A stretch of 64,000 bases of DNA from Alphaproteobacteria bacterium (GTDB taxonomy: Bacteria > Pseudomonadota > Alphaproteobacteria > CAAGCB01 > CAG-977): NCBI GenBank assembly GCA_045587165.1, contig JAZNBT010000020.1, positions 20,603 through 84,602 of the forward strand, given 5' to 3'. The notes under the pieces were generated by a model. It had not been told where the DNA came from, ran no database searches, and saw only the letters and a program-made list of their open reading frames with translations. Positions 37,625-51,205 of this stretch are shown here, one piece after another. How positions within the stretch are numbered: the stretch's first letter is position 1; every line of letters begins with the position of its first letter. Position numbers and translations under genes: made by a program.

Positions 37625-37725
37625 AAGATTTAAGCGGAAACCGGACAGCGACCCGTTTTAAAACCGTTACGGCTGCTTTCTTCCGAATCTGACCGGGTTG
37701 GCGGCCAAAACGTCCGCGGCCGATT
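37625..37725 (-). ncRNA. ffs: Signal recognition particle RNA (4.5S, ffs)
   Basis: The minus strand reads ...CCGGUCAGAUUCGGAAGAAAGCAGCCGUAACGG..., matching the conserved SRP domain IV (E. coli ...CAGGUCAGGUCCGGAAGGAAGCAGCCAAGGCAG...). Flanking complementary arms are present, and the position upstream of dnaX is conserved. Ends are approximate. Confidence 0.65.
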
Positions 37726-37898
37726 TCCTTTTCCTATTTAGGGATATTTTTGTTTTAAGTGCAAGCAGAACTTTTTTTATTTTTCAAACAGACGGTCAAA
37801 CCCCTTATTTAGAGCCGTTTTTCGATCAAAGCTTGACAAAGGGAGGTTTTCCGTTTTTTCTGTACCTTGCTTTTGTTTGTTCCAAGGAGTGTTCTTTT

Positions 37899-42698: not shown

Positions 42699-43442
42699 AT
42701 GAAATCGGCATTTCTTTTTGTTTTTCTGTTTTGTTCTCAGGCTTTCGCTTCTTTTGATGACGGGCAGAAAGCTTTTGTTCAAGGAAATTACGGTAAAGCT
42801 TTCGAATATTGGCGACAGGCTGCGGATGACGGCGATTTGACCGCTCAACGCAACATTGCTCACTTGTATCGTTGGGGAAAAGGCGTGCCGCAGGATTTAA
42901 TGCAGGCCGCTTTTTGGTATTATACGGCGGCAAAAGGCGGATCGGATACGGCACAGTATAATTTAGGGGTGATGTATTTACGCGGAGAGGGCTTGCCCCG
43001 AAACGAAGAGGAAGGCATTATCTGGTTGGAGCGCGCGGCAGAGCAAAACAATGCAAAGGCAAAGAAAAAACTGGCGCATTTGAAGGTGGAAATCGAACAC
43101 GAATTGCCGTCGGAAGACGAGATTTTGACACCGGTGAAACCGAAAACGGCCAAAGTATCGGAAAAAGCCCCCGTAAACATGGTGACGGTCAGTAAAAAAG
43201 AACCGCCTTTGTACGCTCATCTGGCTTCCTATTATACACAGGAAACTTTGGAAAAAGGATGGCGGGAATTAAAACAGACTTTTCCCGAACTGGCGCGTTT
43301 GAAAACGCTTGAAACGCAAGTGACATTGCCGGAAAAAGGAAAATATATCCGTTTGTATATTAAAGGGAATGCCGCCGACATACGCAATGTATGCGGCCGG
43401 TTAAACGAAAAAAAACAATATTGCCTGATCAGCTATCCGTAG
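42699..43442 (+). CDS. Secreted Sel1-repeat protein with a C-terminal SPOR-like domain
   Basis: Signal peptide, Sel1 repeats (IAHLYRWGKGVPQD, LGVMYLRGEGLPRN), a linker, then YAHLASYYTQETLEKGWRELKQ...KYIRLYIKGNAADIRNVCGRL with a SPOR-like pattern. Confidence 0.68.
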   Translation: MKSAFLFVFLFCSQAFASFDDGQKAFVQGNYGKAFEYWRQAADDGDLTAQRNIAHLYRWGKGVPQDLMQAAFWYYTAAKGGSDTAQYNLGVMYLRGEGLPRNEEEGIIWLERAAEQNNAKAKKKLAHLKVEIEHELPSEDEILTPVKPKTAKVSEKAPVNMVTVSKKEPPLYAHLASYYTQETLEKGWRELKQTFPELARLKTLETQVTLPEKGKYIRLYIKGNAADIRNVCGRLNEKKQYCLISYP

Positions 43443-44499
43443 GTTGTTGCGGCGCGATTTGGTTTATTTTATAGGATTTTTTTCCGGCTTTTTTATTGGA
43501 CCAGATCAGCTTTGCATATGTCCGCATATCAATGACCTTGTCCGTTTCATCCAGAATTTCCTGTCCCAAGATCGTTTCCAGAACGTCTTCCATCGTGACG
43601 ATGCCGAGCCATGTTCCTAATTCATCGTAAACAACACCGATATGGTTATGCGTACGCAACATTTCCGTAAAGACAAAATCGACACTGGATGCAGAGGCGA
43701 TTTCCAAAATCGGACGAATGGAATCATTAATGGATAAAGTCGGGTCTTTACCCAACATATCGGATTTATGAACGTAACCGATAAAAATTTCTTCGTCTTC
43801 GTTTTTCATGACGGGATAGCGCGAAAAGGTGTGCTGGGTCGCCGTTTCGATAAATTCACCGATGGAAATGCCGGCCAAGACGCTGGCGCAGACATTGCGG
43901 GGCGTCAGCAAATCTTTGACCTTAATGTCTTCCAGATTCAGGGTGTTGCAAATCATGTTATATTCGTCGTCGTCCAAGAAATTTTCCGTGCGTCCCATTT
44001 TTGTTAACGCTTTGATTTCTTCACGAATGTCTGTTTTGATGCCGTTTTTCGGAGTGATTAATTTTGTCAGCAGTTCAAACAGTTTTAAGAACGGTTTTAG
44101 AACGAACAACATAATGCCTAAGATAAAACATAAAAATCCGATTAAACTTTGCCAATAAGTCGCGCCGATCGTTTTAGGAATGATTTCGCTGCACGTTAAA
44201 ATCAAAACCGTCATAATAGCCGAAGCCATGGCGACGTATTCGGATCCGAATACGACTTGCACCTGCGCCCCGATACACGACGCGCCGGCCGTATTCGCAA
44301 TCGTGTTCAGCATTAAAATGGCGGCCAGCGGACGGTCGATATGTGCTTTTAAGTAGGATATTTTTTTATAAAGATTCGGTTTTTCTTCTTCCAATCGGGC
44401 GATATAACTGGGGGTGATGGATAATAAAGAGGCTTCCATCATGGAACATAAAAAAGAAATGCCGACCGTTAAAACGACCAGAATAATTAAAAGAGTCAT
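43429..44499 (-). CDS. HlyC/CorC (CNNM) family transporter-associated protein (DUF21 plus CBS pair plus CorC_HlyC)
   Basis: From ATG 44499 (RBS GAGGAT): MTLLIILVVLTVGISF... with TM DUF21, a CBS pair and a C-terminal transporter-associated domain. The listed 44817 start is a spurious upstream extension overlapping the permease gene. Confidence 0.78.
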   Translation of the reverse strand: MTLLIILVVLTVGISFLCSMMEASLLSITPSYIARLEEEKPNLYKKISYLKAHIDRPLAAILMLNTIANTAGASCIGAQVQVVFGSEYVAMASAIMTVLILTCSEIIPKTIGATYWQSLIGFLCFILGIMLFVLKPFLKLFELLTKLITPKNGIKTDIREEIKALTKMGRTENFLDDDEYNMICNTLNLEDIKVKDLLTPRNVCASVLAGISIGEFIETATQHTFSRYPVMKNEDEEIFIGYVHKSDMLGKDPTLSINDSIRPILEIASASSVDFVFTEMLRTHNHIGVVYDELGTWLGIVTMEDVLETILGQEILDETDKVIDMRTYAKLIWSNKKAGKKSYKINQIAPQQPTDS

Positions 44500-44609
44500 A
44501 TAATCCTCTGCCAAAAAACACAATGAAATAAGGCTAGCACTAAAGCATAAGCGGGTAAAGCGAAAACGGCGGAAAATTTTTCCGCCGTTTTGAAGTTTTT
44601 TCAATTTTT

Positions 44610-46067
44610 TTAAACTGTTAAAATTCCGCGCCAGAACAATAAGACGGCGATCAGCGAAATTAAAACCATCAAACCTGCAAGCCAAGTTTCTCGTGTGGTG
44701 AACATTTTTTCCTCCGGATTGTTTTCTTTGCGTGACCAGATAAAAACGGGAATTCCGATTGTCAGAAATAAAACGGCCATTAACAAATATTCCAGTCCGG
44801 CGGCATAAATCAGCCATAAAGCGTAGATCGATCCCAAAATGGAGCAGATCAATGCGCCGGATCTCGGAACGGCAGCCGTCGTCGGATATTCTCCGTCTTC
44901 ACAGATTTTCCACAGGTACGCCATACTTGATAAATAAGCCGGCAAAACCATGACACCCGTAATGGACAGCATGGTGTTCCATGCGTTGTTTGAAAAATAA
45001 ACCATTAAAATAGCCAACTGCATCAACAAACTGGTGACCCACAAAGATACGGACGGAGATTTATGTTCGTTTTCCGCCGCGAAAACCTTTGGGAAAGTAC
45101 CGTTTTGCGCCGCGGCAAACGGAATTTCCGCCGTAATCATCGTCCAGGCCAACCAACTGGCCAAAACGGCGATCAGCAACCCGATATTCATTAACCAGCT
45201 GCCCCATTTGCCGACAACGACTTCCAATACGCCGGCTGTCGACGGATTGGGTACTGCCGCCAATTCGGCCTGGCTCATAAAGCCGTAAGGCAGGACGGAT
45301 AACAGGACGTAAATTGTCAAACAGCCCAAAAAACCGATAAAAGTGGCTTTTCCTACTTCAGATTTGTTTTCGGCGCGGTCCGATAAAACGACGGCGCCTT
45401 CAATCCCGATGAAAGCCCATAACGTGACTAGCATGGTGCTTTTAACCTGTTCGGGGAGGGATCCCAATGCCGCATGACCGTGAGAAACGAGATTGCCCCA
45501 GAAATCGTCTTCGAATTGATGGATTTTAAATGCGAAAATCATAATCAAAATGAAGATGAACAAAGGCAAAATTTTAAATACGGTCGCGATTGTGTTGATA
45601 AAGCTGGCTTGTTGAACGCCGCGCAGTACGACGAAATTAAAAAACCAGATTAAAACCGATCCGCCGATAATGGAATAAAGATTGTTGCCGCCTGCGAAAT
45701 ACGGCGGAAAAAAATAATTTAAGGCGTCCATCGTGATGACGGCATAACCGACATTCCCGAAAATCTGACAAAGCCAATATCCCCAACCGATCGTAAATCC
45801 CATAAACGGTCCGAAACCTTCGCGGGCATACATGTAAATACCGGCGGTCAAATCGGGTTTGGCGTCCGATAAAATACGAAAGGAATTGGCCAGAAAATAC
45901 ATTCCGATACCGGTTATAACCCAAGCGATCAATACTGCCCCGACCGATGCGCCGGCTGCCATGTTTTGCGGCAGACTGTAGATGCCGCCGCCGATCATTG
46001 AACTGATGACGACACTGGCCAGTGCAATCAGTCCCAGTTTCTTGTTTGTGTTTTGTTGCTGTGCCAT
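44610..46067 (-). CDS. APC-family amino acid/polyamine antiporter (arginine:agmatine antiporter candidate, AaxC/AdiC-like)
   Basis: 485 aa, 12-13 TM, APC permease signature. Immediately downstream of the pyruvoyl-dependent arginine decarboxylase gene. Confidence 0.72.
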   Translation of the reverse strand: MAQQQNTNKKLGLIALASVVISSMIGGGIYSLPQNMAAGASVGAVLIAWVITGIGMYFLANSFRILSDAKPDLTAGIYMYAREGFGPFMGFTIGWGYWLCQIFGNVGYAVITMDALNYFFPPYFAGGNNLYSIIGGSVLIWFFNFVVLRGVQQASFINTIATVFKILPLFIFILIMIFAFKIHQFEDDFWGNLVSHGHAALGSLPEQVKSTMLVTLWAFIGIEGAVVLSDRAENKSEVGKATFIGFLGCLTIYVLLSVLPYGFMSQAELAAVPNPSTAGVLEVVVGKWGSWLMNIGLLIAVLASWLAWTMITAEIPFAAAQNGTFPKVFAAENEHKSPSVSLWVTSLLMQLAILMVYFSNNAWNTMLSITGVMVLPAYLSSMAYLWKICEDGEYPTTAAVPRSGALICSILGSIYALWLIYAAGLEYLLMAVLFLTIGIPVFIWSRKENNPEEKMFTTRETWLAGLMVLISLIAVLLFWRGILTV

Positions 46068-46128
46068 TTTAATGTCCTTTTAAACAAAAAAGCGGCATCG
46101 CTTTTATAAACGATACCGCTTTTGAAAA

Positions 46129-46710
46129 TTACAATTTAACGGGATCCGTTGTTTCAAAATTCAAGAAACCCAACGCCGTTAAACAATAACCGAAGCGTTG
46201 TGTAATGTTGATGTAATTGTGGAACAACTGGAATTCGCTGTGTTTTTCGACGCCGCGTATTTCCAATTCATGGTTTAAAGATTTGTTCAACCACATTTCC
46301 GCATGACCGCGGGCGATGTCATCATCTATATACGTCGGGAAATATTCGACGTATTCGGCAGCCCAACCGCCGATCAAATTATCGTCTTTGTCTTTTCCCC
46401 AACAAATGCCGACGCCGGTTGCAATTGCACGATGTTCGCTGCTGTCGGCACCGTTTCCGGCCATGATGACTTCCAAAACGGCACCGTGTTTGAAGTATTT
46501 CGTCACTTTGTCTACGGGGACGATGTTGTTGTACAATTCCGGCGGTAAGACGGAAGTATACGGGACAACGTTAAAATCCTGAATTTTCGCCTGAGATAAA
46601 GCCGAATCGTAACAAAACGTTTCAAAAGGCTGCGGCGGAATACCGTCGTCGGACTGACCTGCGCCGCCGGTGTGAAAAGCTAAAGTCGGATAGCGTGTTC
46701 CTAATAACAT
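46129..46710 (-). CDS. pdaD: Pyruvoyl-dependent arginine decarboxylase (PdaD/AaxB family)
   Basis: 193 aa. [14 protein letters not shown]...[26 protein letters not shown] aligns with the PdaD pattern [38 protein letters not shown], including a Thr-Ser cleavage dyad in the same place. Confidence 0.72.
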
Positions 46711-46919
46711 ATTTTTTTCTCCTGAATATTAATATAAAAAGAAGACATTCTTCCTTTTTCTCGAAAATAGTAGAAAAAAAACGTATTTGTTCCTAGATAG
46801 ACTTGTTCTTATAAATAATAATGTATCTATACGTTTTTATATATGCTGCTTGTTGTGTTTTTATTTTTATTTTTTTGTTTTATGTTTTTATTTATTTTAT
46901 TGAGTTTTGTGAGGATAAA

Positions 46920-48212
46920 ATGAAAAATATGAAATATAAACGAATGAAAGGCGTTCAAACTCTTTCATTTACATGTGCCGCCGTTTTGTTTTCTTTACCC
47001 GCTTCGGCTCAGCAGGTGCAAGAAGTTGAAATAATCGAACAGCTGGATGTTTTAACGATACAGTCGCAAATGAACAATAACGGCAAACTGTCGACTCGTT
47101 TAAAGAGCGCCGCGGATCGGTTGAATAATCACGTTGAAGGATTTGAAAAAGATTATAACGATTTTAAATCCATGCTGTCGAATGATTTCGGTCTGCAGTA
47201 TTCGATCGATGTTTCTTTTATGGGGCAAAAAGGCGTACCTTCCGGCGGTAAAACGGCAACGCAGAGTATTTATGCGCCGACGGTATCATGGCAGATGTTT
47301 AATGACGAAACATTCGGATCGGGAACGATCAACATGTCCTATACCGCAGTTCGTTATTGGGGAAACAAGGCGTCGAACATCGGTGATGATCTTTACTTGG
47401 CGAATGCGATCAACGATTATTCGACACCGTCAAACGCGATTGATCAGTTAAGCTATACGCACGCTTTGTTTAATAATAAGTTCTCCGTCACTCTCGGTCA
47501 GTATTCCATCGCCGATTTCGACGGGATGCAGTATGCTTCAAATCAGCAAACGGGATTTATTAACTACGCTCTGTCCCAAAACGGCAGTGAAACGTATCCG
47601 ATCGCCGGATTGGGGGCGTACATTCAGTTTAATCCGAATGACGAATGGTCTTTTACCGGCGGTTTTCAAAACGCTCGTAATGTAACGGGAGAAACATTGT
47701 CCGGCAAAGGATGGGGCGATCATCGATTTACGACATTCGGTTCGATTTCTTATACGCCGACGATCAACGGGCAAACGGGGCAATATTCTTTGTTGGTTTA
47801 TAATCAGCCGAACGTCGAAACGCAGCCGCAAAATACGACGGGTTGGTCCGTTAACATGTCGCAGAATTTAACGGAAAAATGGGGCGTCTTTGTACGCGCC
47901 AATGCCGCGACCGGCGATTCGATGCCGATAACGCAATCTTATGCCGTCGGCGGCGTTTTAAACGATCCGTTGGATCGTAATTCGTTGGATCAGATCGGGT
48001 TTGCCGTTGCTTATAACAAAGTCAGCAAAGACTACTTTGATTCTTCCGAACCTATGCGGCAATATGAAACCGTTGTCGAAACGTATTGGAATATCGGTAT
48101 TACGCAATTCTTTACGATTACGCCGGATATTCAGTTATATGTTCACCCCGCATCAAAACGAGACAGGGATTTCGGAACGGTATTCAGTTTACGCGGTACG
48201 TTTTTGTTGTAA
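46920..48212 (+). CDS. Outer-membrane porin candidate (AaxA-like), divergent from pdaD
   Basis: Signal peptide MKNMKYKRMKGVQTLSFTCAAVLFSLPASAQQ. Beta-strand-rich, with alternating aromatic/hydrophilic composition. RBS GAGGA before the ATG at 46920. The listed 46821 start lies in an AT-rich promoter region. Confidence 0.55.
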   Translation: MKNMKYKRMKGVQTLSFTCAAVLFSLPASAQQVQEVEIIEQLDVLTIQSQMNNNGKLSTRLKSAADRLNNHVEGFEKDYNDFKSMLSNDFGLQYSIDVSFMGQKGVPSGGKTATQSIYAPTVSWQMFNDETFGSGTINMSYTAVRYWGNKASNIGDDLYLANAINDYSTPSNAIDQLSYTHALFNNKFSVTLGQYSIADFDGMQYASNQQTGFINYALSQNGSETYPIAGLGAYIQFNPNDEWSFTGGFQNARNVTGETLSGKGWGDHRFTTFGSISYTPTINGQTGQYSLLVYNQPNVETQPQNTTGWSVNMSQNLTEKWGVFVRANAATGDSMPITQSYAVGGVLNDPLDRNSLDQIGFAVAYNKVSKDYFDSSEPMRQYETVVETYWNIGITQFFTITPDIQLYVHPASKRDRDFGTVFSLRGTFLL

Positions 48213-48737
48213 AATTTCCGAAGAACCTGATTTAATCAGGTTCTTTTTTTTATCTTTTTTCATTCGCCATAGTGTAAACGCGTAAAGGGAAATGTTTGTC
48301 ATATCTTCGATAACCCCTCCGACGGAGCCTCCGGCGATATCGTGAACAAGCCATAAAAAACAGCAAAAGAGAAAGCATATTCTTAATTTTGTCCCGCCGG
48401 AATAGGCGGCGAAGAATGTTGCTATGACGACGGCAGCGACGGGCAACAGGCTGTATACGTTTTTATAGCTGTAATATCCTGAAATTAAAGCAATTGCCGC
48501 AAACGGATAAGCAATAATAGCTCCTTTAAAGTAAATATTCAGATACATACGCAATCCGACGATCACTTTAGACAGGCATGCGCTGAAATTTCCCAATAAG
48601 AAATGATGAATACCGAATAAAAGGGCGGATACGGCGAACAACAGAAACAACTTTTTATCGTTTTTTTGCAAAGCTCCCGCCAAAGACAGGGTATAAGCCA
48701 CATATCCCAGAATTTGAGGGAAAGATAAAAAATCCAT
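48189..48737 (-). CDS. Inner-membrane protein (YgjV-like), last gene of the his-like/UbiA block
   Basis: 182 aa, 5-6 TM segments, no motif. Confidence 0.45.
   Translation of the reverse strand: MDFLSFPQILGYVAYTLSLAGALQKNDKKLFLLFAVSALLFGIHHFLLGNFSACLSKVIVGLRMYLNIYFKGAIIAYPFAAIALISGYYSYKNVYSLLPVAAVVIATFFAAYSGGTKLRICFLFCCFLWLVHDIAGGSVGGVIEDMTNISLYAFTLWRMKKDKKKNLIKSGSSEILQQKRTA

Positions 48738-51129: not shown

Positions 51130-51205
<76 letters not shown>

Follow-up and report, generated by a model that had tools for sequence, protein, structure and literature searches.

Three genes of a gut-associated alphaproteobacterium probably form an arginine:agmatine exchange module homologous to chlamydial AaxABC

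Does the arginine:agmatine exchange (AAX) system of the Chlamydiaceae, AaxABC, have a counterpart in Alphaproteobacteria? The question is raised by three genes at positions 44610-48212 of a 64,000-nucleotide stretch of contig JAZNBT010000020.1 from an Alphaproteobacteria bacterium (assembly GCA_045587165.1); this whole stretch is referred to here as the window. To our knowledge, AaxABC has been studied only in the Chlamydiaceae. The chlamydial system consists of the outer-membrane porin AaxA, which stimulates it in Chlamydia pneumoniae, the decarboxylase AaxB, which cleaves itself at Ser53 to give a pyruvoyl enzyme, and the arginine:agmatine antiporter AaxC (PMC2720952). AaxABC is seen as horizontally acquired in the Chlamydiaceae and is decaying in C. 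trachomatis (PMC2720952). Names of the aaxB and aaxC type are already in use for gut bacteria (PMC8465708), and in the library searched, which is incomplete, we found no account of the three-gene aaxABC module in Alphaproteobacteria. The homology of the three proteins, the catalytic residues, the fold and the conserved gene linkage form the basis of our reading, which is that the locus is very probably an AAX module homologous to chlamydial AaxABC and resident in a gut-associated alphaproteobacterium.

The genes for a porin, a pyruvoyl-dependent arginine decarboxylase (PvlArgDC) and an amino acid-polyamine-organocation (APC) antiporter are clustered within 3.6 kb. Two of them lie on the minus strand: the aaxB-like gene for the predicted decarboxylase proenzyme (46129-46710, 193 aa) and the aaxC-like gene for a predicted inner-membrane basic amino acid/polyamine (arginine:agmatine) antiporter (44610-46067, 485 aa). 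The aaxA-like gene (46920-48212, 430 aa), whose product is an OprB-family outer-membrane porin made as a signal-peptide precursor, lies on the plus strand and diverges from aaxB across a control region of 209 bp (46711-46919; GC content 0.211). All three genes were present in the open reading frame list with the coordinates given in the initial annotation of this DNA, and the spacer is as AT-rich as that annotation had described. In the mechanically derived list the porin reading frame begins at 46821, with an implausible leader rich in Phe, Ile and Tyr. The start of aaxA is likely the ATG at 46920, which has GAGGA just before it, agrees with the limits of the spacer and yields a typical signal peptide, MKNMKYKRMKGVQTLSFTCAAVLFSLPASA/QQ, with an AxA motif at its end (LPASA/QQ) as read from the sequence. 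Shine-Dalgarno sequences thus precede the starts of both divergent genes (AGGAGA for aaxB, GAGGA for aaxA).

The decarboxylase gave the clearest assignment. AaxB matched a single Pfam family, PF01862 PvlArgDC (89.3 bits; cut-off 22.7). For the chlamydial reference we used database proteins of the C. felis Fe/C-56 locus AP006861 (L082), which includes the AaxB protein CF0286; a BLASTP comparison with CF0286 revealed 141 identical residues out of 194 (73%) over the full length (E 1e-111), with the motif YTSVLP kept. The Thr52-Ser53 dyad is visible in the translation (VVPY-T52-S53-VLPPE). In an alignment of 24 homologues with identities down to 26%, P8, G18, A37, N47, S53, P56, G76 and E119 were invariant, and D35 and G114/G115 nearly so. 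When AaxB alone was searched against the PDB with phmmer there was no match, and the profile of the 24 sequences was required to reach the S53A proenzyme of Methanocaldococcus jannaschii PvlArgDC (1n2m, E 6e-16). In that alignment T52-S53 falls on S52-A53, N47 on N47 and E119 on E109. The AlphaFold2 model of AaxB had a mean predicted local distance difference test (pLDDT) score of 96.7, and its top PDB matches in Foldseek were 2qqd and 1n2m (E about 1e-12, template modelling (TM) score on the target 0.76-0.85). These features suggest that AaxB is cleaved between T52 and S53 into a predicted beta chain (residues 1-52) and a predicted alpha chain (residues 53-193). In C. trachomatis D, replacement of Gly115 by Arg blocks AaxB cleavage (PMC2720952); the equivalent residue of the window protein, at position 114, is still Gly. 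Nothing points to aaxB being a pseudogene, and its product would be expected to cleave itself and to be active. The protein lies inside an AaxB-type clade with 100% bootstrap support against more distant PvlArgDC homologues. It scored 35.2 and 30.5 bits on the NCBIfam PvlArgDC equivalogs NF009064 and TIGR00286, below their cut-offs of 207 and 106.95. A representative-library search and a cluster look-up returned diverse PvlArgDC homologues and identified no chlamydial sequences. Among the wider family, four PvlArgDC homologues of 286-479 aa (P0256, P0257, P0258 and P0263) have a fused architecture, in which long, mutually similar N-terminal extensions are followed by a complete decarboxylase domain with a YTSVL motif. 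P0257 and P0258 are truncated at the N-terminus, and the complete extensions of P0256 and P0263 open with a hydrophobic segment.

AaxC matched PF13520 AA_permease_2 (202.6 bits) and passed the TIGR00905 model for basic amino acid/polyamine antiporters over its full length (587 bits; cut-off 409). It was identical to C. felis AaxC at 289 of 478 positions in BLASTP (60%). The scores of the two proteins followed one pattern: on TIGR00905 and the ArcD, histamine antiporter and AdiC models the window AaxC reached 587, 535, 473 and 164 bits, compared to 590, 507, 437 and 155 bits for C. felis AaxC. The window protein is below the equivalog cut-offs for ArcD (TIGR03810, 535 bits; cut-off 591) and AdiC (NF007929, 164 bits; cut-off 574).

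The porin matched PF04966 OprB (93.5 bits; cut-off 22.9) and, in BLASTP, was identical to C. felis AaxA at 132 of 344 positions (38%, E 4e-80) in the barrel domain. Its AlphaFold2 model, of moderate confidence (pLDDT 71), was an all-beta barrel from residue 92, with P. putida OprB (4gey) as the top PDB match (E 1.4e-17). On the NCBIfam equivalog NF051888 'porin AaxA', which was built on Chlamydia, the window porin scored 314 bits (E 1.7e-93), under the 600-bit cut-off. C. felis AaxA scored 804 bits on this model, and the porins of two further aaxABC loci, L083 and L084, scored 471 and 495 bits, also under 600. Collectively, these comparisons bear out what the initial annotation had proposed for the three proteins, namely a PdaD-like enzyme with a Thr-Ser self-cleavage dyad (T52-S53, N47 and the catalytic Glu are all kept), an APC antiporter following it and a signal-peptide, beta-rich outer-membrane protein. 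Its likening of the locus to the aaxABC module of Chlamydia also holds against C. felis, with 73%, 60% and 38% identity for AaxB, AaxC and AaxA.

The linkage of the three genes was analysed by scanning the porin alignment against one genome per species, which gave relatives in 368 species, and the best 80 loci were examined. By label, essentially all of these 80 species are uncultured gut, rumen or faecal Alphaproteobacteria represented by metagenome-assembled genomes (MAGs). In 17 species (L001-L017) tblastn revealed a syntenic block, MltG-Sel1-CNNM-aaxC-aaxB<>aaxA-YgjV-HisF, in which <> marks the divergent pair. Ten more loci (L037, L038, L042, L048, L056, L067, L070, L075, L076 and L079) have aaxBC beside the porin gene in divergent, A-B-C or B-C-A order, with A-B-C in L056 and L079. 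Of the 80 related species-level loci that were fetched, 27 (17 syntenic and 10 rearranged) therefore have the three genes side by side, and co-directional aaxABC was also found in L083, L084 and L086. With adjacency in these 27 loci, in C. felis and in three further loci, the association of the three genes exceeds chance. Individual AaxB clusters at 90% identity were seen on up to 639 contigs. Within this lineage the module is thus not unusual, as the initial annotation had supposed it to be for an alphaproteobacterium: it is present in 17 syntenic and 10 rearranged species, and its AaxB clusters extend to hundreds of contigs.

Several of these loci carry labels that do not fit their content. 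L016 (CAVCSV010000008.1) is titled 'Limosilactobacillus gorillae' and L056 (CAYPVK010000010.1) 'uncultured Lactobacillales'; both bear an outer-membrane porin and the alphaproteobacterial syntenic block, and they are likely mis-binned contigs in Gram-positive bins. The AaxB of L084 (Logan SRR25820369; P0407) has the NCBI cluster name 'MAG: Victivallaceae bacterium'. Gene order in L084 is as in C. felis (aroC-aroB-aroDE-aaxABC-DAO-x-mdh) and its Aax proteins group with Chlamydia, so that L084 probably either comes from a Chlamydiaceae-like organism or belongs to a bin with the wrong label. L086 (Logan SRR17418339) comes from a low-GC (37%) diderm, and its co-directional aaxABC genes are flanked by genes for an ankyrin-repeat protein, a Slam-like (SlipAM/TPR_Slam) protein and a heptosyltransferase.

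From these sequences we infer that AaxB cleaves itself, and likewise which substrates the module handles, in which direction it exchanges them, what it does for the cell and how it is regulated. The OprB-family porin would let L-arginine across the outer membrane, and the AaxC-like antiporter would bring arginine in and take agmatine out in exchange. The AaxB-like proenzyme would cleave itself at Thr52/Ser53, with Ser53 becoming the pyruvoyl cofactor, and the mature enzyme would decarboxylate arginine, using one cytoplasmic proton per turnover. Agmatine would then exit through AaxC and the porin. The net effect would be to make the cytoplasm more alkaline and, as Arg(+) enters and Agm(2+) leaves, to generate a membrane potential that is negative inside. 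The outcome may be acid tolerance, and possibly energy conservation, while the bacterium passes through or resides in the animal gut. Neither the 64-kb window nor any alphaproteobacterial locus contained a homologue of agmatine deiminase (AguA) or N-carbamoylputrescine amidase (AguB), which argues against a biosynthetic role of the locus.

A number of observations weigh against this reading, and we set them beside the alternatives to which they belong. The alternative that survives best places a two-gene aaxBC unit by chance beside a general-purpose OprB-like porin, an ordinary major porin rather than a dedicated AaxA; we consider this unlikely, though it has to be taken seriously. The window porin could be a general porin, since paralogues unlinked to aaxBC score 282-302 bits on NF051888, barely under its 314 bits, and C. 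felis AaxA shows 32-39% identity to the alphaproteobacterial porins whether or not these are linked to aaxBC. About 53 of the 80 porin loci fetched had no aaxBC within 6 kb, and about half of the unlinked porins precede a different gene triad (Zn_protease / 7TM_transglut / ATP-grasp). In addition, aaxA is encoded on the other strand, where it has a promoter-like site and a terminator of its own, and being divergently transcribed it is outside any aaxBC transcript. Likeness to AaxA is a trait of the whole alphaproteobacterial porin family, and sequence leaves the orthology of the window porin unestablished. As unlinked paralogues are nearly as AaxA-like, the role of the porin in the module rests mainly on recurrent linkage. 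That linkage is what speaks against a chance neighbour. All 18 members of the window porin's clade (17 related species and the window; 95% bootstrap) adjoin aaxBC, including L002, which was shown as 'solo' in the porin tree owing to masked bases and whose aaxBC genes were revealed by tblastn. At least four other porin lineages are also linked to aaxBC, in varied gene orders that include A-B-C and B-C-A; the linkage is seen in Chlamydia, L083, L084 and L086 as well, and the C. pneumoniae porin stimulates exchange (PMC2720952). For this clade 'carbohydrate porin', the name given by NCBI, probably misleads.

The triad behind the unlinked porins was found at 24-28 'solo' porin loci (of L018-L080) as three co-directional genes following the porin gene. 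They encode a lipoprotein with a PF05618 Zn_protease domain, a PF14402/PF14400 protein resembling seven-transmembrane (7TM) transglutaminases and a PF14397 ATP-grasp protein (for example at L078:8280-8909, L049:7928-9490 and L068:9357-10352). A second conserved module, different from aaxBC, is thus associated with this family of porins.

The second alternative holds that AaxB is biosynthetic, making agmatine for putrescine and polyamines as in archaea, and that the permease is a mere arginine importer. Biosynthetic archaeal enzymes (PDB 1n2m, 2qqd) are those on which the PvlArgDC family is defined, and an AaxB-type enzyme from Cetobacterium, 82% identical to the window AaxB, is encoded ahead of genes for an agmatine deiminase (PF04371) and a CN_hydrolase (PF00795), in a putrescine-pathway context that has neither antiporter nor porin. 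An AaxB-type enzyme alone therefore does not dictate an exchange role and can serve biosynthesis. The window is moreover 64 kb of a genome, and agmatine-using genes may lie elsewhere. The window and the alphaproteobacterial loci, however, are those in which AguA and AguB homologues are missing; the partner of AaxB is an exchanger-type APC protein, 60% identical to a characterised arginine:agmatine antiporter; and the decarboxylase-antiporter pair is kept in 27 species-level loci. We regard a biosynthetic role as quite improbable. In the Cetobacterium sp. MAG (JAVXPH010000005.1), the regions L085:5001-7632 and 10051-10585 hold this set of genes for the AaxB-type PvlArgDC, the agmatine deiminase and the CN_hydrolase together with, a few kb downstream, a DDAH-like gene and one for a PF02329 pyruvoyl histidine decarboxylase, so that the setting of the enzyme there is one of biosynthesis or of biogenic amines.

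Exchange of another substrate pair, arginine/ornithine feeding an arginine deiminase pathway or histidine/histamine, is very improbable: although AaxC reaches 535 bits on the arginine-ornithine antiporter equivalog, close to the 591-bit cut-off, and 473 bits on the histidine-histamine model NF040512, and antiporters of the aaxC type are found beside pyruvoyl histidine decarboxylases in several gut phyla (PMC8465708), both scores are under the curated cut-offs, the authentic C. felis AaxC has the same pattern (507 and 437 bits), the adjacent enzyme is of the PvlArgDC type with no arcABC or hdcA nearby, and the match of the AaxB model to the pyruvoyl histidine decarboxylase 1pya (E 1.6e-3) is a distant second to that to PvlArgDC (E 1e-12).

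How the AAX module came to be in this lineage was addressed with base composition, gene neighbourhoods and trees. The GC content of the module (0.443) matches that of the window (0.445), and GC at third codon positions (GC3) is within the range of the neighbouring genes. The flanks are housekeeping in nature, with FabG, FabF, MltG, HisF, HisH and a UbiA-family gene. A recent, island-like acquisition was rejected on GC, GC3 and the conserved housekeeping flanks. The trees were neighbour-joining trees, distance-based and sparsely sampled, of which the AaxB tree was rooted with distant homologues and the AaxC and AaxA trees at the midpoint. The AaxB and AaxC trees were congruent, separating an alphaproteobacterial clade from a chlamydial clade (C. 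felis, L083 and L084) that had 98% support in the AaxC tree, and L086 branched between the two. A nesting of Chlamydia within alphaproteobacterial diversity, which would hint at the donor, was considered and rejected, as the AaxB, AaxC and AaxA trees all give a separate chlamydial clade. With the chlamydial group separate in all three trees, a donor cannot be named. It follows from the GC match, the conserved synteny, the housekeeping flanks and the separate clades that the module has long been resident in this alphaproteobacterial lineage. Of the lateral acquisition that the initial annotation had suggested there is thus no sign as a recent event: composition matches that of the window, the flanking genes are housekeeping ones, and alphaproteobacterial AaxB and AaxC form a clade of their own. 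The other suggestion of that annotation, an intracellular lifestyle, gained no support here, the labels of the relatives being those of gut, rumen and faecal MAGs.

The sequence around the genes suggests how the module may be controlled. In an alignment of the divergent spacer from 12 species the only well-conserved block was AGATAGACTTGTTCTTAT (46795-46812, plus strand), which overlaps a promoter-like site for aaxA at 46794-46822 (TAGATA-17-AATAAT) and probably acts as the -35 region of the aaxA promoter or as its operator. The 61-nt spacer between aaxB and aaxC contains a terminator-like stem-loop and U-run (46088-46123, minus strand), with a GC-rich stem of 13-16 bp followed by TTGTTT. This hairpin was kept in 12 species, where 92% of cells were paired compared to 34-70% in slid controls, and 4 of 13 pairs were changed on both sides. 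It is missing from the L013/L016/L017 clade, in which the two genes are 15 nt apart. The hairpin is probably a partial terminator or attenuator, or else a processing site or 3' stabiliser of the aaxB message, that sets the enzyme:transporter ratio. The module may accordingly be regulated from divergent promoters in the AT-rich spacer, with partial termination between aaxB and aaxC keeping the transporter at a lower level than the enzyme. Two further terminator-like hairpins delimit the module. One, palindromic, with 13 pairs and flanking A- and T-runs, lies past the aaxC stop at 44563-44591 and separates that stop (44610) from the likely start of the next gene (about 44499). The other, on the plus strand right after the aaxA stop (48220-48246), has 12 pairs followed by TTTTTTATCTT.

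The gene directly downstream of aaxC encodes a CNNM/CBS-domain membrane protein (43429-44499, minus strand); its mechanical reading frame was over-extended to 44817. This gene is syntenic in L002-L017 and was not seen in L001 or in the more distant aaxBC loci. The protein matched the model of the polyamine exporter PaeA weakly (61 bits; cut-off 500), and any involvement in the export of agmatine or polyamines is hypothetical. The window had only two Rfam matches at the gathering threshold, a bacterial small signal recognition particle RNA (37633-37728, minus strand) and a tRNA (51133-51205, minus strand).

The finding adds a new host lineage to a known system for acid resistance and arginine consumption; it reveals neither a novel mechanism nor a novel kind of system. 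A broader proposal, which we offer tentatively and hold to be possible though doubtful, is that the gut Alphaproteobacteria, together with the L083 and L086 lineages, are part of a wide, previously unremarked natural reservoir of complete aaxABC. In the gut bacteria the module would, by electrogenic decarboxylation and antiport, serve pH homeostasis and conserve energy, and it would make them notable producers of agmatine in the animal gut. Intact three-gene versions in many gut and rumen alphaproteobacterial species and in other lineages provide comparators for the system outside an inclusion, as well as material with which to trace its origin. The finding also marks abundant uncultured gut bacteria as likely to consume arginine and to produce agmatine, a metabolite that affects the host.

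Compared with known systems, the individual parts of the module resemble proteins from several settings, and the whole resembles one. The porin shares the Pfam OprB domain with the carbohydrate-selective porin OprB of P. putida (4gey), its best structural match; the structure-based identity is about 16%, and its partner genes here are for amino-acid decarboxylation, not sugar uptake. The proposed cycle is that of E. coli AdiA/AdiC (acid resistance system 3, AR3), in which arginine enters, decarboxylation consumes a proton and agmatine leaves through an APC antiporter. AdiA, however, is a large pyridoxal phosphate enzyme with no relation to PvlArgDC, AdiC is only distantly related to the window AaxC (164 bits on a model with a cut-off of 574), and AR3 has no dedicated porin gene. 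With archaeal PdaD (M. jannaschii MJ0316; PDB 1mt1, 1n13, 1n2m, 2qqc and 2qqd), AaxB has in common the fold (target TM score about 0.8) and the conserved residues N47, S53, E109 (archaeal numbering) and D35. Identity to the one archaeal enzyme compared is only about 18-19%, and AaxB has a Thr-Ser rather than Ser-Ser dyad. It also differs by an insert of 7 residues in the GIPPQPF region and by roughly 30 additional residues, and archaeal PdaD serves biosynthesis and has no antiporter or porin partner.

The closest counterpart is AaxABC of the Chlamydiaceae (C. pneumoniae CPn1034/1032/1031), which has the same three protein types, the same Thr52-Ser53 dyad and almost the same lengths (193 aa here and 195 aa in Chlamydia for AaxB, 485 and 486 aa for AaxC). 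Within this likeness, Trp128 of chlamydial AaxB is Tyr in the window protein, and the N-terminal 90 residues of the window porin are unaligned with chlamydial AaxA, from which it also differs in falling under the equivalog cut-off. Organisation is the main contrast. In Chlamydia the genes form one co-transcribed A-B-C operon, and in C. felis aaxA, aaxB and aaxC are co-directional and almost abutting, with 9 nt between aaxB and aaxC. Here, aaxA is divergent, so that co-transcription with aaxBC is not possible, unlike in Chlamydia, and aaxB and aaxC are separated by 61 nt with the conserved terminator-like hairpin. The hosts differ as well, Chlamydia being an obligate intracellular pathogen, whereas the host of the module described here is a gut alphaproteobacterium known from metagenome assemblies alone.

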